Assembly (NCBI GenBank): GCA_035248905.1
Contig: DATFGX010000010.1
Coordinates: 175,468 to 239,467, forward strand
From: Blastocatellia bacterium
Lineage (GTDB): Bacteria; Acidobacteriota; Blastocatellia; UBA7656
Direction: 5' to 3'
DNA: 64,000 nucleotides
The notes beneath the pieces were generated by a model. That model saw nothing but the letters and a program-made list of their open reading frames with translations, was not told the DNA's origin and did no database searches. Below are positions 2,549 to 56,439 of the stretch, piece after piece; within the stretch, counting starts at the first letter, position 1, and each line of letters starts with the position of its first letter. The position numbers were made by a program, and so were the translations under genes.

Positions 2549-2558
2549 AGCCTGCCTC

Positions 2559-3506
2559 TCAGTGCCCGTTGCCGGCGTGGCGGCGCGTCAAGGTCACAAA
2601 CACGTCTTCGAGCGAAGGCCGCGCCGGCGTCGCTTCGACCTCATGGATGCCGATGTCTGCGAGCGTTTCCTTGAGCCGCTCAATCGGCACGTCGCTCTTC
2701 ATCAGCAAGTGAATCGATTGCCCGAAGATCGTCGCGCTCTGAACATAATCGGCGCGCTTTAGCTCGGCCAGCGCGACGGTCGTGTTCGCGCAACTGACCT
2801 CGGCCCACTTCATGTCGGGCGGCGTCACTTCGGCCATCTGCTTGAGCGTGTCGGGCGCGCCGTAGGTAATCAGCCGCGAGTTGTAGATGTAACCGACACG
2901 CGCGCAGCGTTCAGCTTCATCCATGTAATGTGTCGTCACAAACAAAGTGATGCCCTGGCCCGAAAGCTGAAAGAACAAGTCCCACAGCTCGCGCCGCGCT
3001 ACGGGGTCGATGCCGGCGGTCGGCTCGTCGAGAAAGATGATCCGCGGCTCATGCACCAGCGCGCAGGCCAGGGCCAGCCGCTGCTTCCAGCCGCCCGATA
3101 GCCGGCCTGCGCGCCGGTCTGTGAAGCGGTTGATGTGTGTCAGATCGATGACCGCCTGGCGGCGCTCCTTCAAGCGCTCGCCCTTCAAGCCGTAGACGTG
3201 CGCGTAAAAGTTGATGTTCTCCCAGACCGTCAGGTCCGTGTAGAGGCTGAACTGCTGCGACATGTAACCGATGCTCTGGCGAATCTCATCGGTCTGTTTG
3301 AGGATGTCGAAGCCGGCGACCGTCGCCGTCCCGCCGCTCGGCGTGATCAGCCCGCAGAGCATGCGGATGATCGTTGACTTGCCCGACCCGTTGGGGCCGA
3401 GAAAGCCGAAGATCTCGCCGTTGGCCACGGCAAAGCTCACCTCGTTGACGGCGGTGAAATTGCCGAAGCGTTTCGTCAGCCCATGAATTTCGATTGCTGC
3501 GTCCAT
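2559..3506 (-). CDS. ABC transporter ATP-binding protein
   Basis: Walker [10 protein letters not shown], signature LSGGWKQRL, Walker [13 protein letters not shown]. Confidence 0.9.
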
Positions 3507-3522
3507 AGTGGGTTTCGGGTGT

Positions 3523-3595
3523 CAGGTGTTGGGTGTTGGGTGGCGGATTGCAAAGTCGGGCATTCTGAAACCCGACACCTAACACCCAACACCTG
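3523..3595. repeat. Unit-built hairpin C: tandem GGTGTTG heptamers and their complement, intercistronic
   Basis: caggtgttgggtgttgggtg (3523-3542) pairs with cacctaacacccaacacctg (3576-3595) with one mismatch. There is an inner hairpin, tcggg...cccga. It fills the 93-nt gap between the HlyD stop (3600) and the ATPase start (3506). Confidence 0.8.
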
Positions 3596-3599
3596 GCAC

Positions 3600-4751
3600 C
3601 TATTTCATGATGCTCACGTCGGCGGCCATGCCGGCGCGCAGCTTGTGCGAGCTGTTGTCAATGCGGACGCGCAGGGCGAAGACCTGGTGCTCGCGCTCGC
3701 TGCGCGTCTGCACGTTGCGCGGCGTGAACTCGCCGCGACTGGCGATCTGCTCAATCGTCCCTTTGAAGCTCTCGTTCTTGTAGGTGTCAACTTTAACCGT
3801 CACCTCTTTGCCGAGCTGCGCGTAGCCCAGCTCCGGCTCAGGCATGTAGACGCGCACCCACAGGCGGTTCAATTCGACCAGCGTCGCGACCGGCGCGTTC
3901 GGGTTGATCAAGTCGCCGGGCCGCACGCGCAGCACTTCGATGAAGGCGTCGGCGGGCGCGCGGACTTCAAGCTCGCCGAGCTGCGTCTTGATCTGTTCGA
4001 GCGTGGCGCGGGCGCGGTCGAGCTGTGCGCGCGCCGCGGCGATGTCTTCCTTGCGGGAGCCATTGCGCATCATCTGATATTGCGCGGCGGCTTCGTTGTA
4101 TTGCCGCTCGGCGCGCTTGACCTCTTCGCTGCGCGTGCCGGCCAGCAGCATGTCGAGCCGCTGTTTGGCGGCGTCGCGCTGGCCGGCGGCGCGGTCAAAC
4201 GCTGCCTTCGCGTTGTCGTAGTCCTGTTTTGATTGAATGCCATCACGCACCAGTTTCTCGACGCGAGCGAGCGTCGCGCGCGCCACTTCGTAGTCGGCGT
4301 TGGCCGCTTCCAACTGGCCGCGCGCCGCTTCAATCTCCTGGCGGCGCGGGCCATTGCGCGCTTCTTCGAGCGCCATCCAGGCGGCCTCGGCCTGCGCCTT
4401 CGCCTGCGCCACTTCTTCGGGGCGAAAGCCGTTTACCAGCTTTTGATAATTGGCGTCGGCCTGCGCGACGGCGGCTTCGGCGTCAGCCCGCCGCGCGTTC
4501 AGGTCATAGGCTTCGAAGCGAATCAGCGGGTCGCCCTGCTTGACCTCCTGGCCTTCGCGCACCAGAACTTCACTGATGCGCCCGCCGAGCTTCGAGCCGA
4601 TGTGAATCTCGTCGGCTTCGATGTTGCCCGAAAGCACGATGCGGTCGGTGGCGGCGCGGCTGGTGAAATACTTGACGGTCGCCGCCGCGCCGACCGCGGC
4701 GAGCGCCAGCGCGCCGATCAATAGCGTCTTGCGAAATCTGCTGGTCATCAT
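3600..4751 (-). CDS. HlyD-family membrane fusion protein
   Basis: 383 aa with an N-terminal TM segment, a long Ala/Gln/Arg-rich coiled-coil centre and a C-terminal beta domain. Its start overlaps the TetR stop by 4 nt. Confidence 0.85.
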   Translation of the reverse strand: MMTSRFRKTLLIGALALAAVGAAATVKYFTSRAATDRIVLSGNIEADEIHIGSKLGGRISEVLVREGQEVKQGDPLIRFEAYDLNARRADAEAAVAQADANYQKLVNGFRPEEVAQAKAQAEAAWMALEEARNGPRRQEIEAARGQLEAANADYEVARATLARVEKLVRDGIQSKQDYDNAKAAFDRAAGQRDAAKQRLDMLLAGTRSEEVKRAERQYNEAAAQYQMMRNGSRKEDIAAARAQLDRARATLEQIKTQLGELEVRAPADAFIEVLRVRPGDLINPNAPVATLVELNRLWVRVYMPEPELGYAQLGKEVTVKVDTYKNESFKGTIEQIASRGEFTPRNVQTRSEREHQVFALRVRIDNSSHKLRAGMAADVSIMK

Positions 4752-5431
4752 CGTTGCCCCTTTCGGCGGCGCGTCGCCGTCGCCCGACGGGCGCGCTTGC
4801 CGGGGTTGTCTTGACTGGCGCGGGCCGCGCCGTTGAAGAAAAGATCGATGGTGTGCGTCGCCAGCCGCTCGATGAACGGCTCGTCGAATTGCAGCTTGCC
4901 GAAAGCCATCGTGATGATCGGGCGCAGAAGCTGAAAGACGACGATCATGCCGATCAAGCTGATGGGCGCAAGGTCTACGTCAATCGCGCGCAGCTCGCCG
5001 CTGCGCACGCCTTCGGCCATCGCCTCGCGCAGCATGCCGTAATTGGTCGGGCCGTACTTTGGAAAGACCTGCATGAAGTGCTTACCGCCCGACAGCATCT
5101 CGCGCGACAGGATGCGCGCCAGATGCGGGTGGTCGAAGAGGTAGCCGGCGTAGGCGCGGACGAAGCGCGTCAGCCGCTCTTCAAGCGTGCTCGCGCTCTG
5201 CATGGCTTCGGCGATCAGGCCGCGTACGGTCGAGGCGGCGTTCTCGATGACGGCGAGGTAGAGGTTCTCTTTGTTGCCGAAGTAATAATGGATCATCGCG
5301 CCGTTGACGCCCGCCGCTGCGGCGATCTGGCGGACGCCGACGCCGGCAAAGCCGTGCTCGGCGAATAGCGTCTCTGCCGCCGCCAGAACGTTCGCGCGCG
5401 CCTTCGGGTCATCGGTCTTCGGTCTTGCCAT
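4748..5431 (-). CDS. TetR-family transcriptional regulator
   Basis: N-terminal HTH (AAAETLFAEHGFAGVGVRQIAAAAGVNGAMIHYYFGNKENLY). ATG at 5431 is preceded by GAGG; GTG at 5437 is an alternative start. Confidence 0.9.
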   Translation of the reverse strand: MARPKTDDPKARANVLAAAETLFAEHGFAGVGVRQIAAAAGVNGAMIHYYFGNKENLYLAVIENAASTVRGLIAEAMQSASTLEERLTRFVRAYAGYLFDHPHLARILSREMLSGGKHFMQVFPKYGPTNYGMLREAMAEGVRSGELRAIDVDLAPISLIGMIVVFQLLRPIITMAFGKLQFDEPFIERLATHTIDLFFNGAARASQDNPGKRARRATATRRRKGQR

Positions 5432-5443
5432 ACCCACCTCGAA

Positions 5444-5463: not shown

Positions 5464-5605
5464 AGAATAGAGTTCGCAGAAAGCTTAGTCAAGGCCGGGG
5501 CTTGCGGCGGGTCGGCGGGTGGACTTAGAATGATTTCAAAGGACACTTGCCGACGATCAGCCGACCTATTGAGCACCAACTCCCCAGAAACTGAAGACGT
5601 TGATT

Positions 5606-6784
5606 ATGCCGAGCAGAATTTTGCTTGCGGTTTCTGACCCACAACTGCGGCGCGCCGCCACCGAGGCGCTCCAGGCCGAGAAGATTCAAAGCATCGGCGC
5701 GGAAGACGGCAATACCGCGCTGGGCTTGCTGAACGCCTTGTCGCCGGACGTGCTGGTGGCCGAGATCGCGCTGCCGGGCAAAGATGGCTATGCGCTTTGC
5801 CAGTACGTCCGCCAGTCGGCCAACTTCCAATCGCTGCCGGTGGTGCTTCTCGATCACCACTTCGACGCCATCAATCGCAAGATCGCTGTCAGGGTCGGCG
5901 CTACGATCTATCTGAATCAGCCGTTCACGTCGGGCGAGCTGGTCGAAGTCGTCCGCCGGTTGCTTGTGAACAAGGCAGAGGCGAAGGCCGAGACAGAGAC
6001 GCCGCCGGTTGAAAAGAAAGTTGAGGTGAAAGTCGCAGCGCCACCGCGACCGACGCCGGTCGCCACCGAACTGCACGCGACCGAGATGGCGCTTGCGCCT
6101 TACAGGCAAAAGGCTGCGTTGTTGCCGCGTGACAAGCCATCGCACCGACCGCACGGCTATCTGGCGTTCTTTGCCGTCGCCTTGATCGTCTTGCTCGTCG
6201 GTGTCGCGCTGGCGTTCTGGTTGCGCGCGCAAACGGCAGATGGTCACCTGAGTCTGGCGCAGCCGGCCATCGATGTTTCATTGCCTGAGCGGAGCAGCGC
6301 GGCGGCGATTCAACCCGATCAGGCCGCGACGCCGCAGCCTGCGGCTGAAGCGGGCGCGAGCGCCGAATCATCTCCACAAGTGGAGAGCCGACCGGCGGCC
6401 CCGACAGCGCAAGCCCTGAACAGACGTGTTGCGCGCCGTGCGCCCGCAGGCATCGCCAGCCTGCCGAATCACAGGCCGAAGTCGCCAACGCGGCAGCAGG
6501 AACCGCCGCGCCCGGTGACTGCCGCTGCGCCCGCCCATCCGGGGCCGCCCGCCGCCACCCACCGCCCCCAGGATACGCCTGCGGCTCGCACGTCTGCTGC
6601 AAAGTCGAACCCGAACGGCAATTCATGGCAAAGAGCCGGCCAGGAGATGGCGGCTGCCGGCGAGCACTTCGCCAGCGGCATTAAGCACGTCGGCAAGGGG
6701 AGCGGGAAATTCTTTCTCTGGCTCGGCAAGAAGGTGGGCAGCGGCTTCAAACAGGTCGGCAAGACCGTGAAGCGCGCCTTCTGA
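5606..6784 (+). CDS. Membrane-anchored protein with a degenerate (pseudo) receiver domain and a Pro/Ala-rich tail
   Basis: REC-like N-terminus with the acceptor position as Glu (PDVLVAEIALPGKDG) and KPF as QPF (YLNQPF). One TM segment (YLAFFAVALIVLLVGVALAFWL), then a low-complexity P/A-rich region. A TTG start at 5600 is also possible. Confidence 0.6.
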   Translation: MPSRILLAVSDPQLRRAATEALQAEKIQSIGAEDGNTALGLLNALSPDVLVAEIALPGKDGYALCQYVRQSANFQSLPVVLLDHHFDAINRKIAVRVGATIYLNQPFTSGELVEVVRRLLVNKAEAKAETETPPVEKKVEVKVAAPPRPTPVATELHATEMALAPYRQKAALLPRDKPSHRPHGYLAFFAVALIVLLVGVALAFWLRAQTADGHLSLAQPAIDVSLPERSSAAAIQPDQAATPQPAAEAGASAESSPQVESRPAAPTAQALNRRVARRAPAGIASLPNHRPKSPTRQQEPPRPVTAAAPAHPGPPAATHRPQDTPAARTSAAKSNPNGNSWQRAGQEMAAAGEHFASGIKHVGKGSGKFFLWLGKKVGSGFKQVGKTVKRAF

Positions 6785-6926: not shown

Positions 6927-9900
6927 TTAGAAAGTTTGTCCGAAGCGGATGTGAATGACGCCCTGCGGCTGGCGCAGGATGACGCCGGTGGCGCTGACGA
7001 ACGACGGCGGGTTGAGCAGGTAACCGTAATCGATGCCGACCGGGCCGATAGGCGTATCTAATCGCAATCCCAAACCGACCGTGTGCGTCATGTTGCCAAA
7101 GTTCATGTCGCTGACGCGGCGAAAGACGTTGCCGAAATCGTAGAACGGCACCAGCCGCAACTGCTTGGTCAGCGGATAGCGCAGCTCGAAATTCATCACC
7201 AGCATCGCGTCGCCGCCCAACGGCACCAGCGTCGGCAGCTCCATCTCGTTGCGCGGTTCGAGAATGGCTTGCGGGCCGGCCTGCTCGAACTTGAAGCCGC
7301 GCAGCGTCGTCGCGCCGCCGGCGAAGAAGCGCTGGCTGATCGGCAGCACTTGATCGGCGTCGGTGAGCGTGCCGTTCGGCCCAGAGCCGCGAACCGCGAA
7401 CGGCTTGGCCAGTCCAAGGCGCGCCGCGAACGCCAGCACAGTGTCACGCAGCACCGGCGTCATCTTGTCGAATTGATAATAGCGCTGGTAGTTGGCGAAG
7501 AATTTGTTGAACGCTTCGTTGCCGCCGAACGGGCGCGCGGCGATGGAATGCTCGACGCTGATCAGCTCACCTTTGGTTGGATTGAGCGCCGAGTTGCGCG
7601 TGTCGCGCGTCAGCCCCGCAGAGAACAGGCCGAGCCGGATCGTTTGCTCGTTGCGGGCAATCTCTTCGACGGGAATGTTCTCCGGGTTGATCAGCTTGCT
7701 GCTTTCGATGCTGTAACGGAAGTGCAGCGAGGTGATGTCCGAGAACTTGCGCTCGACTTGCAGGAAGGCGACGAAGCGGTTGATGCCGAAGGTCTGCCCG
7801 TTGGTCGTCGTGCCGCCGCCGACCAGCCGCCGCTGCACCAGCGTGTGCAGGTTGGTGTTGCGGTCGTAGAAGGCCGAGGCCGTGTAAGACCAATCGCTGC
7901 TCCAGAGCCGCAGGTCCGTGTACGACAACTGCAAGAGCTGCTCGCGGAAGCTGGCGCGCGTCCGCATCGAGATCGAATTCGCCCGCCCGAACAGGTTGCT
8001 GTCCGTCAGTTGCAGCAATCCGCGCGGCCCTTCGTCGGTCGAAAAGCCGAGACCGTAGACCGCAAGCAAAGGCTTCGCTTCGGTGACGCGCACGGTGACG
8101 CGCCGCGCATCAGGACCCGCGCCCGGCATCGGCTCGTGGTGGATAGCGATCTCGCTGAAGGCGCCCGTGGCGTACAGATCACGTTGCGTGTGGCGGATCA
8201 AGTCGGGCGTCAGCACATCGCCTTCTTTGAAAGCGAAGAAGCGGCGGATCGACGCTTCGCGGGTCTTGGTCTGGCCGGTCACTTCGATAACGGCGACAAT
8301 GGCGCGCGGGCCTTCGGCGATGTTGTATTGCAGCGCCACGCGATCTTCGGCCAGATCAACAATCGTGTACGGCGCGGTCGTGTCGAGGAAGCCGTGGTCG
8401 CCGTAATAGTTCTTGATGTTCTTCGTCGTCTCGCGCGCCTTCGACGGCGAGAAGGCGTCGCCTGCTTTGAGCGCCTGCCGCTGGCGCAGCTCGTCGGCGG
8501 CAAAGACGGCGTTGCCGTTGAATGTAACGTCGGCTACGGTCGCGCGCGTGCCCTCGTCAACGCGGAAGACCAGCACCATGTCTTCGCTGTTCGGCTTGGT
8601 CTCGATGCGCGAGGTGATGCGCGCCGAACGGAAGCCGAGGTCGGCCATGCGGCTGCGGATGGTTTCGCGGTCGCGGCGGATGCGGTCGTTGCTGGTGATG
8701 CCGCGCGCCAGGCCGCCGATCAGCGGCAGACTGCGGAGAATCGGCACCGCGCCGACGAAGCTCGCCTTCTTTGATTGCAGGTCGCCGCTCACGTCGCCAA
8801 TGCCTAGCTCCTTCGTGCCTTCGAGGCGGATGTCGTCCAGGTCAAGGCGCTGCCCCGGCTGCACATCATAAAACACGTGGACGGTGGGGCCACTGCAATC
8901 GGCAGGCTCGCAGCGCTCGTGAACAGTCGCGAAGAAGTAGCCCTGCTCCTGAAGATAGTTTTCGAGATTGCGCTCGCCGAGTCGCGCCAGCGCGCGGCTG
9001 AAGCCTTGCGTCTCGACCGGAATCAATTCGCGCAGCTTGCGATTGCTCAGCTTGACGCCCGCGGGGTTGACCATCGTGACTTCGGCGGGCGGCAGCGGCG
9101 CGCGCGCTGGCGCGGTGTTGCGGCCCGGCGCGACGCTCACAGGCTGTTCGAAGCCGAGCGCGAAGCGCGTGCGCCCGCGCACCTCAATCGTGAAGTTGCT
9201 GTCGGTCGAAGCGCCGTTGCTGACCGTCCCGCCCTGCGTGTACGACGCCAGGCCGGAGAAGCGGTTCGTCAAAACGTACTCGACGAGGGCGCTCTGGTCT
9301 TGCTCGCTGCCGACGTTGGTCGAGTAGGTGAACGACAGGTCACGCGTCAACTGTTTGCCGATGGTCAGCCGCGCCGCCGGGTTGGAGTTCGGCTCAAGCA
9401 CGGGGTCGAGTTGAAAACGATTCAAGCCGAGCAAGGATTCGGTCGGCTGCGAAATGAACTGCTCGGAGAGCAGCGACGCGGCGGCGCCGAGTCCCGATGA
9501 AACTAAATCCTGGCTGGCGAGCGTGCTCGAATTGATGTGGCCGGTGGCGACCAGCGACAGCACGTCCGAGCGCGGCAGGTCGGGGTCGGAGCGCAGCGTC
9601 ACTTCCATCTGATCGAGCGGCCCCTGCAAGCCGACATAAACATGATAATTGCTGATGTCGGCTTCGGTCTGTAGGTTGACCACAGGCGTTGCGCCGCCGC
9701 CCGGAAAGTCGAGCGTGCCGGTGGTGATGTCATAACGCTGGGCGCGCAGCTTGATCGTGCCGCCTTCGACAGAGACACGCCCGGTGATGTTCGGATCGGT
9801 CGCCGTGCCGCTGACCGAGAGCGCCGCCGAGCCGACCGTATTGACTTGCTGGTTGCGGATCAACAAGGTGCCCGGCGCATTGATGCGCAGGTCGAGTCCG

Positions 9901-12900
9901 AGCGGCGGCAGTCCGAGCGGCCCGCGGCCAGCGGTCGAGCCGCCGCTGCCGCCGCCGAAGACCAGACCGTCCGCGCCGCTCGCGTTGCCGCCTGCCATGC
10001 TGCCGAAATCGATGTTCGTCGTGTAATCGCCTTCGGGGATGTTGACCGTGCCGCTCAACACCTGACGGTCGGTGTTGCCCGTGAGGTCAAGGTTGGCATT
10101 GGCGATGATCGAGGCGCCGCCTTCGATGACGTTGACGTTGTCGGCAGTGGCGGTGAAGTGCCAGTCTTGCAGCTTCAGCCCGCTCAAGCGCACCTCGCCG
10201 CTGGCCTTGAGGTTGCCGTCGTTGGCTTGTGCCGTAAAGCTTTCGAGCGTGATGCGGTCACTGGCCATGACGATGCGGCCATTGCCGTTGAAGATGCCGA
10301 GCGGCAGGGCTTCGCCCGAAGCCGCAATCTGTTCCAGACGAATCTCGCCCGCAAGTCGCGGGTCGCTGAGCGTGCCGGTCAATCGCGTATCGACCGTGAT
10401 AGTGCCGCCGAGGTCGAGATCGGGACTCACCTGGCCGAGTTCATTGAGTCGCGCCGCGCCGTTCAAAGCGAAGTTCACCGGCGCGTCGCCGTTCAACGCC
10501 AGCGTGCCGCCGAGTCTGAAATCAAAGCCCTGGCCGTAGATGCGCGTTTGGCTCAGAGCAACTTCAGGCCCGGTCATCGTCACCGACAGCGGCGCCTGAA
10601 TGTTGATCGCTCGGCCCTCTACGTTGAGCGCGACGGTGTTCAGCGTCAGGTCGCCGCGCAGGTGGTCGAGCGTCATCACGCCCTGGTCGTTTTCAATCGG
10701 GCCGATGATGTAGAGCCGGCCATTCACCATGCCTGTGATCTGTGCATCGGGCGCGAAGGCGGCGACCAGCGGCGCGAGGTCGAGGTTATTGAAATTCGAT
10801 TCGACGGTGAGCGGGCGGCCCGGACGGCGCAGCTCGATACTGGCATGCACCGCCTGCGGCTGGCCCGTGATGCCTGTGACAAAATCAACATCCACACGCC
10901 CGCCGGGATTGGTGCGCGCCGTCAGGTTCAACTCGCCGGCGCTGCGGCCATTGATCGTCACGTCTTTGCCTTGCGCCGTTGCTTCGACCTTGAGTTCGCC
11001 GAGGTCTTTAGTGTTGCCGGTCGCTTGCACGGTGGCGCTGGCCATGCCTGTGACGCTGGCCGAGAGGTTCAGCGAAGTCGTCAGTTGATTCAGGTCAACG
11101 TTGTCGGCGCGGGCTTGCAGTTGAAAGTCGCTCGTCTTTAGATCGTACTGGCCGCTGGCGGTCAACTGCCCTTGCGCGAATTTCAGGTCGGCGCGCTCAA
11201 GCCGCGCCGTGCGGCCATCGAAGACGAGGCTGGCATTCGCATTTTCAGCGGCCTGGCCTTCAATCGTGCCGTTGTTCAGTGTGACGGTCGCCGTCCCTGT
11301 CGGCGAGTCGGGCAAGCCCGTCAGATGCGCTTCGCCGTTGAGGCTGCCGGAGATGAGTTTCTGTTGGCTCGACATGCCGGCGGCTGCGGTAATCGTTTCA
11401 ATGTTGATGTGATCGATGACCGCGTCGAGGCGTCCAGACGTAGCCAGCTCGGCGCGCGGCGCTGAGTAATTAAATTTCGCCGAGCCGCCGTCAACGGTCG
11501 CCAGCACGCCGTTTTCAAAAGCGACCTCTTGCGGCGTGAAGCGCAGGTGGCCGGTCAGGCTGCCGACCGTTTGCTCGTGCGCGCCGATGTTCGCGGCGTT
11601 CAAGTCGCCTTCGAGTGACGGGTCGCTGAGCGAGCCGGTGACGCGACCGTCGAAGTGAAAGTCGCCGGCCAGTCGCGGCTCGTACGACGACACAGCGTCT
11701 TTCACGCTGTTGATCGAGTAAGCGATGGTTTGCAGCTCTTCGGCCCTGGTCGAAGCGAGCGAGAAGCGCAGGTCGGACGAGTTGCCTTTGGTCGCGACGC
11801 GCCCGTTTGCGGTCAACTGTGTCGCGCCTGTGTCGAGCGTCAATTGATCGACGTTGAAGTTGCCGCTCTGTGCGCGGAGGGCAACGTCGCCGGTGACGGG
11901 GATGACGCCTTCCGTCTGCGTCGTCTGCGCCGTCAGGTGCGCCGTGATGTTGCCGCTCGCGGCTTCAAAGTTGGTGCCGGGCCAGCTCACGCGCACCTGG
12001 CTGTTGATCTGGCCTGTGAGCGGCTGGTTGTTGACTTCGAGAAGCTTAAAGACTTCACCGGTCTTCAGGTTGTTGAGGCTCGCGGTCAAGCGCGACGCGC
12101 CGCGGCGGCCCGTGGCGATGACGGCGTCGCCGCTGGCTGTGCCGCCCATCAACGAGGCGTTGAAGCGGTTGAGCGCCACGGCATTGTTATCGGCGACCAG
12201 TTGACCGCGCACAGGGCCGACCTCGCTGCCGCGGATATTGCCGCCGCGCACGTCGAGGCTGCCCTTGACTTGATAAACACCGTTGTTAATGTTCGCCGCC
12301 GTGTCGCGCAAGGTGATGCCGTTGATCTGCCCGTCTTTGAGCGCGACGCGCGCGACTGTAACTTGCTTTACAGTCGCTAGCGTGCGCCCGTCGCGCAGTT
12401 CGGCGCGGATGTCTGCGGCGCGCACGTCTTGCACTTGACCCGCGGAGAGACCGACGCGCCCGACGGCGACTTGCTGCACGTTGGCCGTCGTCACGCCGTC
12501 TTTGATCTCGCCGCTGATGCCGCTGATACGGACACCGGCCAGTTGATTGCCGGCGACCGCCGCGCCGCTGGCGTTGGCGCGACTGCTCGTGAAGGTGATG
12601 CGCTCGCCGTCGGATTCGACGTTGATCTCTTCGACGCTGGCTGTGCGCACGCGGTCGCCGGCGGCGGTCAGGTCTTCGGCGGTCAACGCGCCGATGACCT
12701 TGTATTTCGCGCCGTCGCCTGTGACGTTACCGTTGAAAGTCGCCGCGCCTTGCAAACGCACATCGGGCGCGAGCACGCGCGTCGCTTCGGCGAGTGCGAT
12801 GCGCGTCTGCACGTTGGCTTCGTAATGCAGGCCGGTCACCTGATTCAGCTTGCCGCTGCTGTTGACTTCGGCGATGGGCGATTTCAGCGTGAAGTGATCG

Positions 12901-13616
12901 AGCGTCACACCTGTGTCGGTGATCTTAGCGGCGAGGTCAAGGCTATCGATACGGGTGTCGCGGCCCTGGTAACGCAGGCGGCTCGTGCCAACGTTAAATT
13001 GCAGGTCGTTGCCATCTGGCCCTGGCCGCACAGACAGGTGCATGCCTTCGAGCGCGCCGCTGACCTGATGCTGCTGATCGTTGATGTGCAGCGTGCCGGT
13101 CGTCAGTGTGCTGACGAGGCTCGAAAAGTCGAAGGTGATACGACCAGGCGCAGACGGCGGCGGGTTGTGCAGCCCATCGAAGTTCGTGTGCCCCTGCGCG
13201 TCTATGTCAACGTAGGCTTGCAGGTTGTCGACGTCGACGGTCTTGAAGATAATCTCGCGCTTCAGCCGCAGCGCGTAGAGGTGCGGCGTCTCGACGACAA
13301 TCCCGACGTCGTCCATCGTGGCAATCAGTTGATCGGTCTGCGCGTTGTAGAGCTTAATGTCGTGCGCCTTCGCCGTGCGGATGCCCCAGGTCAGGTCAAG
13401 CCCGCCGACCTCTGCGCGCACGCCGTAATCCAAGAGCGCCTTCTGCACCTGAACGATGATGAAGTGATTGAGCCGCCCGGAACGGATGAAGTAAACCGCG
13501 CCGATGACAAGCACGAGCACGAGCAGCAAGACACTTCCGCCCGCGATCAACAGCGAGCGTTTATGTCGTCTAGCCCAGCTTGGCTTAGCCTCAGGCGGAT
13601 CGGGTATCTGGCTCAT
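6927..13616 (-). CDS. TamB/AsmA-like translocation module fused to a POTRA + Omp85 (BamA/TamA-like) outer-membrane barrel
   Basis: Single 2229-aa ORF. It has an N-terminal signal-anchor (LLIAGGSVLLLVLVLVIGAVYF) and a long repetitive beta-rich body ending in a DUF490-like segment (LNRFQLDPVLE...LTIGKQLTRDLSFTYS...ALVEYVLTNRFSG). A Pro-rich linker follows, then POTRA-like repeats and an Omp85 barrel ending IHIRFGQTF with a terminal Phe. Confidence 0.85.
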   Translation of the reverse strand: MSQIPDPPEAKPSWARRHKRSLLIAGGSVLLLVLVLVIGAVYFIRSGRLNHFIIVQVQKALLDYGVRAEVGGLDLTWGIRTAKAHDIKLYNAQTDQLIATMDDVGIVVETPHLYALRLKREIIFKTVDVDNLQAYVDIDAQGHTNFDGLHNPPPSAPGRITFDFSSLVSTLTTGTLHINDQQHQVSGALEGMHLSVRPGPDGNDLQFNVGTSRLRYQGRDTRIDSLDLAAKITDTGVTLDHFTLKSPIAEVNSSGKLNQVTGLHYEANVQTRIALAEATRVLAPDVRLQGAATFNGNVTGDGAKYKVIGALTAEDLTAAGDRVRTASVEEINVESDGERITFTSSRANASGAAVAGNQLAGVRISGISGEIKDGVTTANVQQVAVGRVGLSAGQVQDVRAADIRAELRDGRTLATVKQVTVARVALKDGQINGITLRDTAANINNGVYQVKGSLDVRGGNIRGSEVGPVRGQLVADNNAVALNRFNASLMGGTASGDAVIATGRRGASRLTASLNNLKTGEVFKLLEVNNQPLTGQINSQVRVSWPGTNFEAASGNITAHLTAQTTQTEGVIPVTGDVALRAQSGNFNVDQLTLDTGATQLTANGRVATKGNSSDLRFSLASTRAEELQTIAYSINSVKDAVSSYEPRLAGDFHFDGRVTGSLSDPSLEGDLNAANIGAHEQTVGSLTGHLRFTPQEVAFENGVLATVDGGSAKFNYSAPRAELATSGRLDAVIDHINIETITAAAGMSSQQKLISGSLNGEAHLTGLPDSPTGTATVTLNNGTIEGQAAENANASLVFDGRTARLERADLKFAQGQLTASGQYDLKTSDFQLQARADNVDLNQLTTSLNLSASVTGMASATVQATGNTKDLGELKVEATAQGKDVTINGRSAGELNLTARTNPGGRVDVDFVTGITGQPQAVHASIELRRPGRPLTVESNFNNLDLAPLVAAFAPDAQITGMVNGRLYIIGPIENDQGVMTLDHLRGDLTLNTVALNVEGRAINIQAPLSVTMTGPEVALSQTRIYGQGFDFRLGGTLALNGDAPVNFALNGAARLNELGQVSPDLDLGGTITVDTRLTGTLSDPRLAGEIRLEQIAASGEALPLGIFNGNGRIVMASDRITLESFTAQANDGNLKASGEVRLSGLKLQDWHFTATADNVNVIEGGASIIANANLDLTGNTDRQVLSGTVNIPEGDYTTNIDFGSMAGGNASGADGLVFGGGSGGSTAGRGPLGLPPLGLDLRINAPGTLLIRNQQVNTVGSAALSVSGTATDPNITGRVSVEGGTIKLRAQRYDITTGTLDFPGGGATPVVNLQTEADISNYHVYVGLQGPLDQMEVTLRSDPDLPRSDVLSLVATGHINSSTLASQDLVSSGLGAAASLLSEQFISQPTESLLGLNRFQLDPVLEPNSNPAARLTIGKQLTRDLSFTYSTNVGSEQDQSALVEYVLTNRFSGLASYTQGGTVSNGASTDSNFTIEVRGRTRFALGFEQPVSVAPGRNTAPARAPLPPAEVTMVNPAGVKLSNRKLRELIPVETQGFSRALARLGERNLENYLQEQGYFFATVHERCEPADCSGPTVHVFYDVQPGQRLDLDDIRLEGTKELGIGDVSGDLQSKKASFVGAVPILRSLPLIGGLARGITSNDRIRRDRETIRSRMADLGFRSARITSRIETKPNSEDMVLVFRVDEGTRATVADVTFNGNAVFAADELRQRQALKAGDAFSPSKARETTKNIKNYYGDHGFLDTTAPYTIVDLAEDRVALQYNIAEGPRAIVAVIEVTGQTKTREASIRRFFAFKEGDVLTPDLIRHTQRDLYATGAFSEIAIHHEPMPGAGPDARRVTVRVTEAKPLLAVYGLGFSTDEGPRGLLQLTDSNLFGRANSISMRTRASFREQLLQLSYTDLRLWSSDWSYTASAFYDRNTNLHTLVQRRLVGGGTTTNGQTFGINRFVAFLQVERKFSDITSLHFRYSIESSKLINPENIPVEEIARNEQTIRLGLFSAGLTRDTRNSALNPTKGELISVEHSIAARPFGGNEAFNKFFANYQRYYQFDKMTPVLRDTVLAFAARLGLAKPFAVRGSGPNGTLTDADQVLPISQRFFAGGATTLRGFKFEQAGPQAILEPRNEMELPTLVPLGGDAMLVMNFELRYPLTKQLRLVPFYDFGNVFRRVSDMNFGNMTHTVGLGLRLDTPIGPVGIDYGYLLNPPSFVSATGVILRQPQGVIHIRFGQTF

Positions 13617-13779
13617 TGGAAGAGGTTTGGAACAAGGTCAGATGAGCGTCCAGGGAGGATACTAGCAAGGGCGCGGGACTAATGACAAGCCCTAGTTGTC
13701 ATGCCCAGGCAAGCTGTGTAAACTGTGTCTGCCTCGCATTGGGATCGAGTCATAACCTTCGGGCCAGGGTGGTGTCGCG

Positions 13780-16329
13780 ATGAAAGATGTAGCCGCTTAT
13801 TCGAACTCGCCTGCTAACCCTCTGGAGACCATTTACCATTTGATCGCGGCGATTGGCCGGGTCGAGCGCCTCGAAGAGATTTATGAAGCGACCTTGAAGG
13901 GCTTGCTCGGCGCGCTCAAGGCGGATCGCGCGGCGATCCTGCTCACGGACGCCGACGGCGTGATGCGCTTCAAGGCGTGGCGCGGACTCTCCGACACCTA
14001 TCGCCGCGCCGTCGAAGGCCACACGCCCTGGTCGAGCGATGACCGAGACCCGCAGCCCGTGCTCGTCGCTGACGCTGAGCGCGCGCCGATGGCCGAGACC
14101 TTGCGCCGGGCGCTCAGCCGCGAAGGCATCCGCGCCATCGCCTTCCTGCCGCTCGTCAGCCGCGGGCAATTGCTTGGCAAATTCATGGTCTACTACAACG
14201 CGCCGCACGCGCACGCCTCGGGTGACGTGCAACTGGCGCAGATCATCGCCGGCCACGTCGCTTTTGCCATCGAGCGGAAGCGCGCCGAGCAGGTCTTGAA
14301 GGCGTCCGAAGAGCGCTTCTCGAAAGCCTTCAAAGCCAACCCCGACCCGATGGCCATTCACGCCATCCGCGATGGCCGCTTCGTCGAAGTCAACGACAGC
14401 TTCCTGCGCATCAGCGGCTACCGCCGCGACGAAATCGTCGGTCGCACGATTGCTGAACTCGGCTTCCTCGCCGACCCCGGTTACTTCGACCGCGCCGCGC
14501 GCTTGCTCGCCGAGCGGGGCCGGCTGAAGGAGTTCGAGTTCGAGTATTGCACGCGCAGCGGCGAGCGGCGCTGGGGCGTGATCTCCGCCGAGATTATCCG
14601 GATTGACAACGAGCCGTTCATCCTGAGCACGACCAGCGACATCACCGCGCGCAAGCAGGTCGAAGAGACGACGCGGCTGCACCGCAGCGTCGAAGAACAG
14701 CTCTCGCTGTTGATCGATGCGTCGGGGGCGCTGCTGACTTCGCTTCAGCCGCAAGCCGTGCACGGCGCCATCCTCGACCTCGCTCGCCGGCTGGTGCCCG
14801 CCGACGCCTACGCCATCTGGCGCTACTGCGAGCGCGAGCAGCGCTGGGAGATCGGCTGCGCCGATGGCCTTTCGGAAACCTACAGACAAAGCACGATAGA
14901 TATGCTCGGCGGCGTCTCGCCGGCGCAGGTGCCGCAGGTCATGAGTGAAGATGTCGAGCAAGAACCGATGCTCGACAGCCGCCGCGAACTCTACCGCGCC
15001 GAAGGCATTCGCTCGCTGCTGGCCGTGCCGCTGCACCTGTACGGCGAAAGCGCCGGCACCATCGCCTTCTATTTCAAAGCGCCGCATCGCTTCACGCAGG
15101 CCGAGCGGCGCATCGCCACGGCGCTCGCCAACCTGGCGTCGGCGGCCATGACCACCGCCGAGTCGTTCCAGGAGCAGCGGCGCTTGCGCGTCCACGCCGA
15201 AGAGTCGAACCGTTTGAAAGACGAATTCCTCGCCACCGTGTCGCACGAGCTGCGCACGCCGCTGACGCCGCTGCTCGGCTGGACGCACATGCTGCGCACG
15301 CAAAAGATGGACGCGAATATGCGCGCCGCCGCGCTCGAAGTCATCGAGCGTAACGTGCGCTCGCAGACGCAGATCATCAACGACATCCTCGACGTGTCGC
15401 GCATCATGACCGGCAAGCTGCGGCTGGAGATTCAAGCCGTGCAGCTGGCGCAGATCATCGAGTCGGCCATCGACACCGTGCGGCCTGCCGCCAGCGCCAA
15501 AAAGATTCGCCTGTGCACCGAGCTCGATCAGCCGGTCGACGAGGTGCGCTGCGACCCCGACCGCTTGCAGCAGATCGTCTGGAATCTGTTGTCGAATGCC
15601 ATCAAGTTCACGCCCGAAGGCGGCGAGGTGAGCGTCGCGTTGTCGAATCAAGCGGGCCGCGCCGCCATCACTGTGAGCGACACGGGGCAGGGGATTAGCG
15701 CAGACTTTCTGCCGCACGTCTTCGACCGCTTCCGCCAGGCCGATAGCTCGTACACGCGCAAGCACGGCGGCCTCGGGTTGGGCCTGGCCATCGTCCGTCA
15801 CCTGGTCGAATTGCATGGCGGCACGGTTGAAGCACACAGCGAAGGCCAGGGCCGCGGCGCGACCTTCACGGTCTCTCTGCCGCTGGCCGACCAGATAACT
15901 CTGCTCGCGCCGCCGGTCGCGGCGCAGGCCGAACCGGAGACGCGCTGGTCGCTTGCCGGCGTGCGGTTGTTGCTCGTCGATGACGACGAAGACACGCTCG
16001 CCATGCTCAGCCTGGCGCTCAGTCAGCGTGGCGCGACGGTCGAGCGCGCGACCTCTGCGGCGCGCGCCTTTGAGTTGTTGCGGCAATCGCCGCCCGACGT
16101 GCTGGTCTGTGACATCGGCATGCCCGGCGAAGATGGTTTCGCGCTGATCGAACGGGTGCGCCTTCTCGGCGCCGATCAGGGCGGCAACGTCAAAGCCGTG
16201 GCGCTGACGGCTTACGCCCGCGCCGAAGACCGCCAGCGGGCGCTGGCCTGCGGCTTTCAACACCACCTGCCGAAGCCCATCGATCCTGATGAGCTAACCG
16301 CCCTGCTCGCCACAGTCATCGCCGAATAG
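13780..16329 (+). CDS. Hybrid sensor histidine kinase (GAF-PAS-GAF-HisKA-HATPase-REC)
   Basis: H-box SHELRTPLTP, N/G boxes (NLLSNAIKFTPEGG, DTGQGI, GGLGLGLAIV) and a C-terminal receiver (LLLVDDDED...VLVCDIGMPGEDG...LPKPI). The 838-aa antisense ORF is treated as a shadow. Confidence 0.9.
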   Translation: MKDVAAYSNSPANPLETIYHLIAAIGRVERLEEIYEATLKGLLGALKADRAAILLTDADGVMRFKAWRGLSDTYRRAVEGHTPWSSDDRDPQPVLVADAERAPMAETLRRALSREGIRAIAFLPLVSRGQLLGKFMVYYNAPHAHASGDVQLAQIIAGHVAFAIERKRAEQVLKASEERFSKAFKANPDPMAIHAIRDGRFVEVNDSFLRISGYRRDEIVGRTIAELGFLADPGYFDRAARLLAERGRLKEFEFEYCTRSGERRWGVISAEIIRIDNEPFILSTTSDITARKQVEETTRLHRSVEEQLSLLIDASGALLTSLQPQAVHGAILDLARRLVPADAYAIWRYCEREQRWEIGCADGLSETYRQSTIDMLGGVSPAQVPQVMSEDVEQEPMLDSRRELYRAEGIRSLLAVPLHLYGESAGTIAFYFKAPHRFTQAERRIATALANLASAAMTTAESFQEQRRLRVHAEESNRLKDEFLATVSHELRTPLTPLLGWTHMLRTQKMDANMRAAALEVIERNVRSQTQIINDILDVSRIMTGKLRLEIQAVQLAQIIESAIDTVRPAASAKKIRLCTELDQPVDEVRCDPDRLQQIVWNLLSNAIKFTPEGGEVSVALSNQAGRAAITVSDTGQGISADFLPHVFDRFRQADSSYTRKHGGLGLGLAIVRHLVELHGGTVEAHSEGQGRGATFTVSLPLADQITLLAPPVAAQAEPETRWSLAGVRLLLVDDDEDTLAMLSLALSQRGATVERATSAARAFELLRQSPPDVLVCDIGMPGEDGFALIERVRLLGADQGGNVKAVALTAYARAEDRQRALACGFQHHLPKPIDPDELTALLATVIAE

Positions 16330-16332
16330 GAT

Positions 16333-16359
16333 GTGGCGCAAGCTGTTAGCTTGCGCCAC
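16333..16359. terminator. Bidirectional terminator hairpin between convergent kinase genes
   Basis: Perfect 11-bp stem, gtggcgcaagc / gcttgcgccac, with a 5-nt loop. It lies between the stops at 16329 (+) and 16361 (-). There is no T tract. Confidence 0.55.
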
Positions 16360-16360
16360 T

Positions 16361-18274
16361 CTACTTGTCTAAAACCTCGCGCACCTTGCGAACCAGCGCC
16401 AGCGGCGTGAACGGCTTCTGCAAGAATGACAGCCCGGAGTCGAGCACGCGGTGATGCACGATGGCATCGTCCGTGTAACCGGACATGTAAATCACGCGCA
16501 TCTCCGGGTGCAGCGGCTCAAGGCGGTTGGCCAGCTCGCGCCCGCTCATCTCCGGCATCACCACGTCTGTGAGCAGCAGTTGAATCGGCCCTTGATGGCG
16601 CTCGCAGATCAACAGCGCCGCGCCGCCGTTGGCGGCTTCAAGGACCTGGTAGCCGTACATCTCCAGCACTGCACGCGCCAGTTGCCGCACCATCTCTTCG
16701 TCCTCGGCCAGCAGGATCGTCTCGCTGCCGCGCAGCGCTTCTTCGACTTTGGCGTCCGGCTGATAGGCCGGCGCGCCTTCGCCGCAGTGCGGCCAGTAGA
16801 CCTTGAAGGTGGTGCCGCGGCCGGGTTCGCTGTAGACCCAGACGCTGCCGCCCGACTGCCGGGCAATCCCGTAGACCGTCGACAGCCCCAGCCCCGTGCC
16901 CAGCTCTTTGGTCGTGAAGAACGGCTCGAAGATGCGCTTCTGCGTCTCGGCGTCCATGCCGATGCCCGTGTCGCTGACGGCCAGCATCACGTGAGCGCCG
17001 GGGGTGACGCCGAGGTGATATTTCGCATACGTGTCGTCGAGTTCAACGTTGGCCGTCTCGATCGTCAGCTTGCCGCCCTGCGGCATGGCGTCGCGAGCGT
17101 TGACGCAGAGGTTCATCATCACTTGCTCGACCTGTCCGGGGTCGGCTTTGACGTAGCCCAGCCCTGAAGCCAGCACCGTGCGCAGCTCGATGTCTTCGCC
17201 GATGACGCGGCGCAGGATCTTTTCCATCTCCGCGACGATGGTGTTGAGGTCGAGGACTTTCGGCTGCAAGATCTGCTTGCGGCTGAAGACCAGGAGTTGA
17301 CGGGTCAGCGCCGCGGCGCGCTCGCCGGCTTTGTGTATCTCTTCAAGGTGGTGGTAGAGCGGCGCGTCGGGGTCGAGCTGCATGAGCGCCAGCTCGCTGT
17401 AGCCATTAATCACCGTCAGCAGGTTGTTGAAGTCATGGGCGATGCCGCCGGCCAGGCGACCCACGGCTTCCATCTTCTGCGCCTGACGCAACTGTTCTTC
17501 GAGCTGCCGCCGCTCGGTGACATCGCGGGCGATGCCCTGCACGCCGACCGGCACGCCGTCCTGATAGATCAGCCGCGTGTTGACTTCGACGGCGATGCGC
17601 CGGCCATCCTTGGCGATGATCTCCAGGTCGTAGATCGTCGGCGCTCCACCGGCCAGTTTATTTACCATCATCTGGCGGGCCTTCTCGATGTACTCTGGCG
17701 CGACCGTCTGCGTGAGGTTCATCTTCATCGCCTCTTCATGCGTCAGCCCGGTGATCAGCTCGCCGGCTTTGTTCATCGAGGTGTAATTGCCTTTGAGGTC
17801 ATGCGTGTAGATAATGTCGCGGGCGTTCTCGACCAGATCGCGGTAGCGCTCCTCGCTGTCGCGCAATTCTTTCTCGGCCTGGTGGCGGGCGCGGCGGTGC
17901 TCGGCCTCGCGCCGCTCGCGCTCGATGGTCGGCACCAGGCGCACGAGATTATCTTTCATCAAGTAATCTTGCGCGCCGGCTCTCATCGCGGCGACCGCGA
18001 CCTCTTCGCCGACGGTGCCGGAGATGATGATAAAGGGGATGTCCAGCCCCATCTCGTGCAGCACAGCCAGGGCTTCGAGGGCGTTGAACTGCGGCATGGA
18101 GTAGTCGCAGAGGATCACATCCCATGGCTGCGCCCACAGCGCGGCGCGCATCGCCTCGGCGGTCTCGACGCGCTCGGCAACCAGGTCGTAGCCGGCGCGC
18201 GACAGATGGCGGTCAAGCAGCGCCTGGTCGCGCTCGCTGTCTTCGATGTGTAAGACTCGTAATCGTTGCGTCAT
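16361..18274 (-). CDS. Hybrid sensor histidine kinase (REC-PAS-HisKA-HATPase-REC)
   Basis: Canonical N-terminal receiver (VILCDYSMP, IIISG, YLMKD), a PAS domain, H-box GIAHDFNNLLT, an ATPase domain (DTGIGMD, GTGLGLS) and a C-terminal receiver (LLLTDVVMPEMSG, LQKPF). Confidence 0.9.
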   Translation of the reverse strand: MTQRLRVLHIEDSERDQALLDRHLSRAGYDLVAERVETAEAMRAALWAQPWDVILCDYSMPQFNALEALAVLHEMGLDIPFIIISGTVGEEVAVAAMRAGAQDYLMKDNLVRLVPTIERERREAEHRRARHQAEKELRDSEERYRDLVENARDIIYTHDLKGNYTSMNKAGELITGLTHEEAMKMNLTQTVAPEYIEKARQMMVNKLAGGAPTIYDLEIIAKDGRRIAVEVNTRLIYQDGVPVGVQGIARDVTERRQLEEQLRQAQKMEAVGRLAGGIAHDFNNLLTVINGYSELALMQLDPDAPLYHHLEEIHKAGERAAALTRQLLVFSRKQILQPKVLDLNTIVAEMEKILRRVIGEDIELRTVLASGLGYVKADPGQVEQVMMNLCVNARDAMPQGGKLTIETANVELDDTYAKYHLGVTPGAHVMLAVSDTGIGMDAETQKRIFEPFFTTKELGTGLGLSTVYGIARQSGGSVWVYSEPGRGTTFKVYWPHCGEGAPAYQPDAKVEEALRGSETILLAEDEEMVRQLARAVLEMYGYQVLEAANGGAALLICERHQGPIQLLLTDVVMPEMSGRELANRLEPLHPEMRVIYMSGYTDDAIVHHRVLDSGLSFLQKPFTPLALVRKVREVLDK

Positions 18275-18283
18275 GCTCAGCGC

Positions 18284-18724
18284 TCATTCGTTGGGGGCGA
18301 CCTGATTCAAGACCAGCCAGTAGAGGCCCAACTGCCGGGTCGCTTCGAGGAACTGTTCGAAGTCCACGGGCTTGCGGACGTAGCTGTTGGCCCCCAGGTT
18401 ATAGCTCTTCACCAGGTCTTCTTCTTCGCCGGACGAGGTGAAGATGACCACCGGCAGCCGCCGCGTGCGCTCATCGGCGCGGATCGCTTCGAGGACTTGC
18501 AGGCCATCCACCTTTGGCAGCTTCAGGTCGAGCAGCACGACCTGCGGCATCTCGCGCAGGTCGCGGCCGTTGTAGCTGCCGGTGGCGAACAGATAATCGA
18601 GCGCCTCGACGCCGTCGCGTGTCACGACAACCTCATTGGCGATGTTGCTCTTGCGCAGGGCGCGCAAGGTCAAGGCTTCGTCTTTGGGATTGTCCTCAAC
18701 CATTAAGATCACTTTCTTCTCCAT
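18284..18724 (-). CDS. Single-domain CheY-like response regulator
   Basis: MEKKVILMVEDNPKDE...VVLLDLKLPKVDG...IFTSS...VRKPV; all phospho-acceptor pocket residues are canonical. The start at 18724 is chosen over the ORF-track start, giving a 29-nt overlap with the upstream kinase. Confidence 0.85.
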   Translation of the reverse strand: MEKKVILMVEDNPKDEALTLRALRKSNIANEVVVTRDGVEALDYLFATGSYNGRDLREMPQVVLLDLKLPKVDGLQVLEAIRADERTRRLPVVIFTSSGEEEDLVKSYNLGANSYVRKPVDFEQFLEATRQLGLYWLVLNQVAPNE

Positions 18725-21371: not shown

Positions 21372-21773
21372 CTTCGGAACATTCCGTAACTATGGGACGA
21401 GGCGAGGTTCATCCCGCATCGCAAGCTCCGCCCTTGCTTGCTGGTCTATGCAATCATTCGAAGCAGTTCGCTACTGTTAAAGTGACGGTCTGCGATCAAT
21501 CGTCGCATGTTTTATGCACTTAGCCGCACGTAATCACCTGAAGGCCCTGTCGAATCGTCCTTTGAATCCGTGCGCTTCTCCAATCAATCGTCAGCGACCG
21601 CTCTTAGATAGCAGCGAGGTTATCTGGGCACTGATTCATAGGCTAGACTGCTCAATTATAACAAAATGAATAATTGATGCACGTCGGGGCAATGTTAATT
21701 TTTGTGTGGGGAATATCCCTACACACTTGTCCCCACGGCAAAGACAGGTAAAGCGGGATGATGGCCACCGCGA

Positions 21774-53188: not shown

Positions 53189-53224
53189 TTCGTGCCTCTG
53201 ACCAATCGTTAATCACTTCAACAA

Positions 53225-56433: not shown

Positions 56434-56439
56434 AGATGC

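Follow-up and report, generated by a model that had tools for sequence, protein, structure and literature searches.

Can a TamB protein and an Omp85 outer-membrane barrel be encoded as one polypeptide and, if so, how would such a chain be arranged? The question is raised by a gene in a stretch of DNA from a Blastocatellia bacterium (assembly GCA_035248905.1, contig DATFGX010000010.1). We refer to this whole stretch of 64,000 nucleotides as the window, and all coordinates are positions in it unless another locus (L001, L005 etc.) is named. A preliminary description, made from the letters alone, had seen one uninterrupted open reading frame (ORF) of 2229 aa that fuses the two modules. The frame does run from an ATG to a stop at 6927-6929, and every motif quoted at that time was found in its translation. 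At the local G+C content of 63.6%, a stop-free run of 2229 codons has a chance probability of ~3e-27. We read the product as a single-chain translocation and assembly module (TAM) with a BamA-type barrel, in which an internal TamB strand would pair in cis with the first strand of the barrel, and we give this reading a probability of about 0.62. The parts of the protein to which we refer are the following:

6927..13616 (-): complete fused tamB::omp85 ORF, 2229 aa, ATG start, stop at 6927-6929
13485..13559 (-): N-terminal signal-anchor, residues 20-44, SLLIAGGSVLLLVLVLVIGAVYFI (Kyte-Doolittle scan; AlphaFold2 (AF2) helix 15-45; TamB_N PF27051)
10242..13484 (-): predicted periplasm-spanning all-beta body, residues 45-1125 (AF2; partial match to the NCBIfam TamB model; Pfam matches on homologues)
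9162..10241 (-): TamB/DUF490 C-terminal domain, residues 1126-1485 (Pfam PF04357; AF2 secondary structure)
9162..9200 (-): last TamB strand SNFTIEVRGRTRF, residues 1473-1485, homologous to the C terminus of free TamB proteins and internal here
9087..9161 (-): Pro/Ala-rich linker ALGFEQPVSVAPGRNTAPARAPLPP, residues 1486-1510, 25 aa (alignment, hydropathy, AF2)
8079..9086 (-): four POTRA domains, residues ~1511-1586, 1592-1687, 1693-1765 and 1773-1846 (Pfam, AF2)
6930..8078 (-): 16-strand Omp85 barrel, residues ~1847-2229 (PF01103, AF2 strands, Foldseek)

One frame from signal-anchor to barrel

The N-terminal two thirds of the chain look like a TamB. The signal-anchor is immediately preceded by RRHKR and is the one hydrophobic 19-mer stretch in the whole protein (within residues ~18-49 of the Kyte-Doolittle scan); precomputed annotation places TamB_N (PF27051) on the fusion protein and on its homologues. 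AF2, run on residues 1-1100 with an alignment of 64 sequences (mean predicted local distance difference test, pLDDT, 86.9), gives a long helix at 15-45 and after it ~70 consecutive antiparallel strands with a few short helices. Positions 370-891 of the NCBIfam TamB model align with residues 458-1018, and the same beta body gives AsmA, DUF748 and YhdP Pfam matches in the homologues. When residues 1-1100 were compared with PDB by Foldseek only weak matches appeared (the lipid belt of ApoB100, LptD and the TamB chain 9xdc_B, E = 0.014), which is unsurprising because PDB holds no full-length TamB structure. The domain that follows matches Pfam TamB (PF04357) at residues 1126-1464 with E = 3.6e-39 (135.5 bits, cut-off 22.4) and is composed in the AF2 model of a disordered Gly-rich loop (~1206-1230), helices and six terminal beta-strands (~1400-1485). 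The signal-anchor, the long beta-rich TamB/AsmA-like body and the DUF490 end of the preliminary description are all recovered in this way; the module was also correctly placed on the N-terminal side, but its end, given as ~1480, has been corrected to F1485.

The C-terminal third belongs to the Omp85 superfamily. A scan with profile hidden Markov models, already proposed as a check, placed both modules above the curated Pfam thresholds: POTRA (PF07244) is recognised in four stretches (3.2e-36) and Omp85 (PF01103) at residues 1874-2229 (4.5e-48, 164.9 bits). The AF2 model of residues 1101-2229 (77 sequences; mean pLDDT 77, predicted template modelling score 0.62) gives, in this order, a beta-sheet, the Gly-rich loop, helices, six TamB strands, a disordered stretch, four POTRA domains and 16 barrel strands, each POTRA unit being a beta-alpha-alpha-beta-beta fold (residues ~1511-1846 for the four). 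The barrel carries the loop-6 motif LRGF at 2105-2108 and ends in ...IHIRFGQTF, and all the features by which the superfamily is recognised (16-strand barrel, loop-6 RGF, POTRA domains and C-terminal aromatic residue) are present. The four or so POTRA repeats and the 16-strand barrel announced earlier are thus borne out by Pfam and AF2; the content assigned to the last ~718 aa (nt 6930-9083) stands as well, although the start of the POTRA region is refined to residue ~1511. Searched with Foldseek, residues 1101-2229 matched BamA chains at E ~1e-38. Template modelling scores of 0.61-0.63 with substrate-engaged forms of BAM, the beta-barrel assembly machinery, against 0.50-0.56 with closed ones, were discounted as an indication of state, as the orientation of the POTRA domains dominates the score.

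That a stop or frameshift had been missed in the linker was a possibility raised in the preliminary description. An identical stretch of 8380 nt that includes the entire gene was found in a separate Logan assembly of SRR5195117. A scan of genome contigs, queried with the single protein and not with an alignment, yielded one true relative, a syntenic copy in a Blastocatellia metagenome-assembled genome (MAG) from GTDB (locus L001) whose protein is 85% identical over residues 1-2229. The first homologue search retrieved 51 full-length proteins from ENA, JGI, NCBI and Logan (2158-2287 aa, 46-92% identity), all with the same Pfam architecture. Mean identity in this family is 61% over all 2229 codons and reaches 70-79% in DUF490 and 77-83% at the end of the barrel. 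One frame is held in these 51 close and in more than 80 distant representatives, and is intact across the independent assemblies, so that, within the power of a comparison, an overlooked stop or frameshift can be ruled out. On this comparative evidence the fusion is a real, conserved gene and no assembly artefact.

Junction, linker and the proposed course of the chain

The place at which the two modules meet can be located by comparison with TamB proteins that are not fused. Free acidobacterial TamBs have NFNFEIRFRKRF at their extreme C terminus, with ends of the type ...NFNFE[IL]RFRKR[FY], and the split-operon TamB of Blastocatellia (see below) terminates in ...LGFDVRLRKRF*. The fusion carries the homologous SNFTIEVRGRTRF (...RGRTRF) and then runs on for 744 further residues, therefore the join lies exactly at the natural C terminus of TamB. 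The strand is conserved, and what is a free C-terminal strand in the TamB class is here internal. Between it and the first POTRA domain lies the Pro-rich linker noticed in the preliminary description at nt 9084-9173; it is present, although its bounds are corrected to residues 1486-1510 (nt 9087-9161). Across 52 aligned family members the linker measures 25-35 aa, its indels are whole codons, 20% of its residues are Pro and 14% Ala, and mean identity is 38%, against 76% in the last TamB strand and 71% in the first POTRA domain. A short L-G after RF and P.A.V before POTRA are conserved, and nothing else between them. AF2 predicts disorder at residues 1492-1505 (pLDDT <50), and a hydropathy scan found no hydrophobic segment in or near the linker. 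Nor did hydropathy reveal a signal peptide ahead of the Omp85 half, the only hydrophobic segment being that at residues 20-44, while its stand-alone Omp85 relatives (P0160, P0176) have ordinary signal peptides. Without a signal peptide of its own, the Omp85 half would reach the periplasm only within the fused chain.

A precedent for how this chain may be arranged is the TAM of Escherichia coli. There the nine C-terminal residues of TamB, its last strand, pair with strand 1 of TamA to form a hybrid barrel, and the POTRA domains of TamA hold the TamB groove (PMC12800296, PMC13119328). The C-terminal domain of E. coli TamB has six strands and two helices, as in the model of the fusion (PMC12800296), and an equivalent hybrid barrel has been modelled for TamB-BamA of Borrelia (PMC13382580). 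For the fusion we infer a location in both membranes, a hybrid barrel formed in cis, a mature protein that stays uncleaved, and the nature of the cargo. The N-terminal helix would be kept in the inner membrane after Sec-dependent export, the ~1400-residue beta-groove of the TamB module would cross the periplasm, and the barrel would be folded by a separate BamA-type insertase once the entire periplasmic part had been exported through Sec. The six C-terminal TamB strands would engage the protein's own barrel, with the last one (1473-1485) paired with barrel strand 1 (~1850-1859). The chain would then leave the membrane at the periplasmic end of this last strand, and the 25-35-aa Pro/Ala linker (at most ~85-120 Å when extended) would loop from the periplasmic rim back to the N terminus of the first POTRA. 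The assembled bridge may, by extrapolation from TAM, supply the outer membrane with phospholipids from the inner one, and perhaps with some outer-membrane proteins as well.

Several observations weigh against this arrangement. The terminal TamB strands, on which the hybrid barrel depends, have a pLDDT of just 50-74 in the AF2 model. A covariation analysis of the last TamB strand against the barrel strands (mutual information with average product correction; 219 fused sequences, effective number ~181) gave a clade-driven signal and no pairing pattern. The TamB module scores 101.4 bits on NF047952, the proteobacterial TamB equivalog, far under the cut-off of 825, and function is therefore extrapolated over a large distance. 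A phmmer search with the DUF490 region found no match among PDB sequences at E <= 0.01, so that there is no residue-level alignment to E. coli TamB. The papers cited still debate if TAM-type systems transport lipids or proteins, or the two together. Within the 64 kb window no second Omp85 or TamB was found, and the stand-alone BamA-family protein comes from a related MAG, not from the window's genome. Finally, the neighbour-joining trees used below to place the fusion carry no support values.

The linker is also where the single-chain reading meets its first competitor. The fusion could be a precursor, exported as one chain and then cut in the linker by a periplasmic protease to give separate TamB and Omp85 proteins in a 1:1 ratio. 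A disordered, Pro/Ala-rich stretch with 38% identity is what would be expected of a dispensable tether, and cleavage would restore the free C-terminal ...RF of TamB. Against this, the linker has no conserved cleavage motif and no hydrophobic region of the signal-peptidase type, nothing in it is conserved beyond the L-G and P.A.V bits, and no dedicated protease gene adjoins the fusion. Pro-rich linkers, besides, typically resist proteases. As cleavage also explains no observation that needs it, we consider a cut precursor improbable.

Related split operons, distribution and genomic surroundings

The second competitor concerns the identity of the Omp85 half. On the BamA equivalog TIGR03303 (cut-off 297.15) the whole protein scores 295.0 bits and the isolated Omp85 half 298.2, a borderline result; the model aligns from its own position 84, and the equivalent of POTRA1 is therefore missing. 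A BamA in the strict sense is made with a cleavable signal peptide of its own and has five POTRA domains; in the fusion there are four, with no signal peptide before them. It is further still from TamA (NF047950; 99.5-105.4 bits, cut-off 625) and from TamL (NF052279; 94.9-104.3 bits, cut-off 400), having no lipobox and four POTRA domains instead of three. If the half is nevertheless taken as the main or only insertase of the cell, TamB would be an accessory attached to a housekeeping BamA, as in the Borrelia BamA-TamB pair. The 298.2 bits just mentioned, the 378 bits of the Thermoanaerobaculia fusions, the NCBI name 'outer membrane protein assembly factor BamA' given to some fusions, the retained loop-6 RGF and terminal F, and a loosely BamD-like gene for a secreted tetratricopeptide repeat (TPR) protein directly upstream in two distant lineages all speak for this. 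However, a Blastocatellia MAG has, in addition to the fusion, a separate gene of the BamA family that scores higher and belongs to a conserved operon, whereas the context of the fusion is variable and its POTRA domains are four, not five; the TPR proteins are not BamD by NCBIfam. There are mechanical objections as well, for an insertase whose lateral gate was permanently filled by TamB strands, as it is in the stable hybrid barrel of E. coli, would be hindered in its turnover, and a sole BamA would have no other BamA to fold it. The probability of this reading is low, about that of a cut precursor; the fusion is unlikely to be the main BamA of the Blastocatellia clade, and other clades with the upstream TPR gene remain candidates.

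The TPR gene itself (~200 aa) lies 30-47 nt upstream of the distant fusions at L010 5313-5954 (on a circular contig of 6.9 Mb) and L011 5384-5971 (on a 2.6 Mb contig). Its product has a signal peptide and may be a periplasmic partner; no such gene stands beside the fusion of the window. BamD identity was considered for it and rejected, as the protein matches no BamD model and has no lipobox.

The stand-alone BamA-family gene is part of an arrangement that bears on the origin of the fusion. MAG GCA_035274905.1 (Blastocatellia) holds both a fusion (P0006, contig 298, 2239 aa, 74% identical to the query) and, on contig 395, a split operon in which a tamB of 1467 aa is followed by an omp85 of 1033 aa (P0174) with a TGATG overlap of stop and start. 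P0174 reaches 336.9 bits on TIGR03303, over the cut-off. This operon is only ~34% identical to the fusion and has a conserved cmk-rib context, which recurs as cmk-ribE-ribBA-tamB-omp85 in a Pyrinomonadaceae MAG:

L005 3598-11102 and L009 2947-11285: split operon cmk-ribE-ribBA-tamB-omp85 in Blastocatellia/Pyrinomonadaceae MAGs

The split operons (L005, L006, L009) share with the fusion the order tamB-then-omp85 and a TamB that ends in the same ...RxRF strand. They differ in having two genes (with the TGATG overlap or a 98-nt gap) instead of one, and in an Omp85 of 1033-1094 aa that, unlike the Omp85 half of the fusion, carries a signal peptide and whose N-terminal region is longer; their proteins are ~30-37% identical to the corresponding halves. 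L005 is a locus with the TGATG overlap between the two genes, and the gene that comes next there codes for 267 aa with weak similarity to peptidyl-prolyl isomerase.

When the Omp85 module and the DUF490 module were each placed in a neighbour-joining tree, the Blastocatellia fusion clade was sister to the split-operon genes in both cases. Other fused clades fall elsewhere, beside other free TamBs, and the Thermoanaerobaculia fusions stand beside a free Thermoanaerobaculia TamB. Since the split-operon genes are closest to both halves in these unsupported trees, the fusion looks like a paralogue, with a separate BamA-type insertase available. The biogenesis puzzle posed in the preliminary description, of a barrel folded by BAM while the N terminus stays in the inner membrane, is softened by the stand-alone BamA-family protein of the related MAG (74%), which could fold the barrel. 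The trees suggest, provisionally, that a tamB-omp85 pair was duplicated and then fused, and that fusion (or fission) took place more than once in the phylum. The Blastocatellia fusion would then have arisen as a paralogue of the translationally coupled split operon, by loss of the stop codon of tamB and of the signal peptide of Omp85. Among Blastocatellia the fusion has no conserved genomic context.

We have taken this one step further in a more speculative proposal. TamB and a BamA-type Omp85 may have been fused several times independently in Acidobacteriota (in Blastocatellia, in Thermoanaerobaculia and in two further large clades), the Omp85 serving as a permanent, dedicated port of a lipid bridge whose cis hybrid barrel is locked by the internal beta-signal, and not as an insertase that turns over. 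We hold this tentatively, and clearly with less confidence than the single-chain reading itself. If it were true, the fusion would be a main anterograde route for phospholipids, and a natural case of an outer-membrane barrel assembled while its chain stays embedded in the inner membrane.

How widespread the architecture is was examined with an exhaustive HMMER search of residues 1101-2229 over 1.84 billion cluster representatives (50% identity). Among the best 147 new representatives, 86 combine both modules in a protein of 1900 aa or more, so that at least 86 distinct 50%-identity clusters carry the fusion; the last residue is Phe in 81 of these 86, and 67 show a hydrophobic segment at the N terminus. 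Names of taxa for the distant fused clusters came solely from a third homologue search. Full-length fused proteins are named as Blastocatellia, Thermoanaerobaculia, Candidatus Polarisedimenticolaceae or simply 'Acidobacteria/Acidobacteriota bacterium', two fused fragments (1796 aa and 931 aa) as Vicinamibacteria and 'Candidatus Soli...', and all fused proteins with a taxon name belong to Acidobacteriota. The distant members (Thermoanaerobaculia, Polarisedimenticolaceae, Vicinamibacteria) have the aromatic-ended terminal strand, the Pro/Ala-rich linker and the POTRA domains in the same order. Some bear the JGI product name 'outer membrane protein assembly factor BamA/autotransporter translocation and assembly factor TamB'. 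Judged from these sequences, the TamB-Omp85 fusion is common across the phylum Acidobacteriota, well represented in databases and annotated there automatically.

Two interruptions were seen among the relatives. In the protein cluster of P0110, where other members have 2211-2213 aa, one ENA contig has adjacent members of 1123 aa and 1054 aa; the copy is broken mid-gene, away from the TamB/Omp85 junction, probably by an assembly frameshift. In P0449 (L011 12380-12778; L012 7074-7423) a frameshift falls in the loop-6 region of the barrel, right before FFAGGGTTIRGF, and the final 95 aa of the barrel are a separate ORF in this lineage. As the break is found in both a long-read contig and a short-read Logan assembly, it may be a real pseudogene.

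These two cases are what could be cited in favour of a decaying or non-functional fusion, an evolutionary accident, but 2229 codons conserved at 61% mean identity, the best conservation in the functional motifs (DUF490 and barrel end) and the recurrence of the fusion across several classes make this very improbable. The least probable reading of all, that tamB and bamA are really two adjacent genes which seem fused owing to an overlooked stop codon or frameshift in the linker, could appeal to the same-order split operons with overlapping stop and start in Blastocatellia, but has practically nothing left to it given the identical sequence in the independent Logan assembly, the single frame with whole-codon linker indels in 51 close and more than 80 distant representatives, an Omp85 half with no signal peptide or start-codon context that would yield an exportable product, and a split operon in GCA_035274905.1 that is a different locus, ~34% identical and in cmk-rib context.

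In the window the fusion gene is monocistronic, flanked by a convergent response-regulator gene and a divergent hybrid histidine-kinase gene. An Rfam scan of the window gave zero matches. The nearest features are:

5600-6784 (+): response-regulator gene, convergent, downstream of the fusion gene
13659..13688 (-): candidate sigma-70-like promoter (TTGTCA, 18 nt spacer, TAGTAT, TG extension), ~45 nt 5' of the ATG, by consensus match only
13780-16329 (+): hybrid histidine-kinase gene, divergent, upstream of the fusion gene

Adjoining this kinase gene, an indel separates the window from the otherwise syntenic, ~83% identical Blastocatellia MAG locus L001, from which the two PAS/histidine-kinase/receiver hybrid genes at 16361-18274 (-) and 18696-21371 (-) (region 16339-21782) are missing. 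Past the response-regulator gene, downstream of the fusion, lies a putative efflux operon (1436-5437, -) of co-directional genes for a TetR regulator, an HlyD-type adaptor, an ABC ATPase and an ABC-2 permease. Elsewhere in the window there are an outer-membrane protein of 1224 aa (42408-46082, +) with CarboxypepD_reg, OMP_b-brl_4 and a barrel of the TonB-dependent-receptor type, and a polysaccharide-related run (51875-58911, -) comprising UDP-glucose/GDP-mannose dehydrogenase, a GT4 glycosyltransferase, asparagine synthase and a heparinase II/III-like protein.

Meaning and comparison with known systems

The preliminary description knew of no characterised example of the fusion. This holds insofar as we found no literature description of a TamB-Omp85 fusion, in a search that left most subscription-journal papers outside and whose negative outcome is no proof of absence; the sequences themselves, on the other hand, are abundant and automatically annotated, so that the fusion is uncharacterised but not unseen. 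It is unmentioned in a study of TAM evolution (PMC4494059), a survey of Omp85 proteins (PMC4104836), a survey of outer-membrane protein fusions (PMC4827864) and a 2024 review of TAM (PMC11014939), the first of which does report BamA-TamB operons in Acidobacteria. Names in current use are inconsistent ('BamA', 'YaeT', 'TamB domain-containing', 'insertion porin family'), which can mislead anyone counting BAM or TAM components in Acidobacteriota, a phylum abundant in soil.

The fusion does not reveal a new kind of machine, for the partnership of TamB and Omp85 that it encodes is already known. What would be new, if the analogy with TAM holds, is that a TAM is made as a single chain, whose barrel is of the BamA type and in which the end strand of TamB has become internal; the mechanism can be interpreted by this analogy. 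For the TAM field the fusion is a natural test, the partners having been covalently tethered, apparently repeatedly, and the terminal strand of TamB having been kept although it is no longer a terminus. It provides independent evolutionary support, of the Rosetta-stone kind, for the pairing of TamB with a BamA-type barrel outside Proteobacteria and spirochaetes. It is also a natural construct for asking whether a free C terminus, or dissociation, is needed, a point of some interest as two 2026 cryo-electron microscopy studies of E. coli disagree on the persistence of the TamA-TamB hybrid barrel, one of them proposing a long-lived stable state (PMC13119328). Finally, it offers a model for how a ~240-kDa chain can start in the inner membrane and be threaded through to a barrel folded in the outer one.

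The closest known counterpart is the E. coli TAM, which has in common with the fusion an inner-membrane signal-anchor, a long beta-groove (putative in the fusion), the six terminal DUF490 strands with an aromatic end, and a POTRA-bearing 16-strand Omp85. It consists of two subunits instead of one polypeptide, and its last TamB strand is free, not internal. The E. coli partner is TamA, with three POTRA domains, whereas the Omp85 half of the fusion is BamA-like (298 bits) and not TamA (105 bits against a cut-off of 625), has four POTRA domains and lacks a signal peptide of its own. The TamB module is also longer, 1485 aa in the fusion compared to 1259 aa in E. coli.

In Borrelia burgdorferi, as in the fusion, TamB is paired with a BamA-type Omp85, and the gene order is tamB-bamA (PMC4494059); modelling suggests that TamB's C-terminal strands complete the barrel of BamA (PMC13382580; PMC5582053). 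There, however, the partners are two proteins and the BamA is the sole one, with five POTRA domains, whereas the fusion is covalent and is an extra copy in at least one related Blastocatellia MAG. A more distant parallel is the elongated MlaD found in Veillonella parvula and in other diderms. It has been proposed that this single chain starts from an anchor in the inner membrane and finishes as an outer-membrane beta-barrel, making a lipid bridge across the envelope (PMC10665443). Its fold is the unrelated MCE hexamer with no AsmA-like groove, its barrel is not an Omp85, and the transport proposed is retrograde and not anterograde. In chloroplasts the TamB homologue TIC236 of the inner envelope is linked to the Omp85 protein TOC75 of the outer envelope (10.1101/2021.04.25.441383); these are separate proteins of a eukaryotic organelle with a role in protein import, while in the fusion the corresponding partners are joined in one chain.

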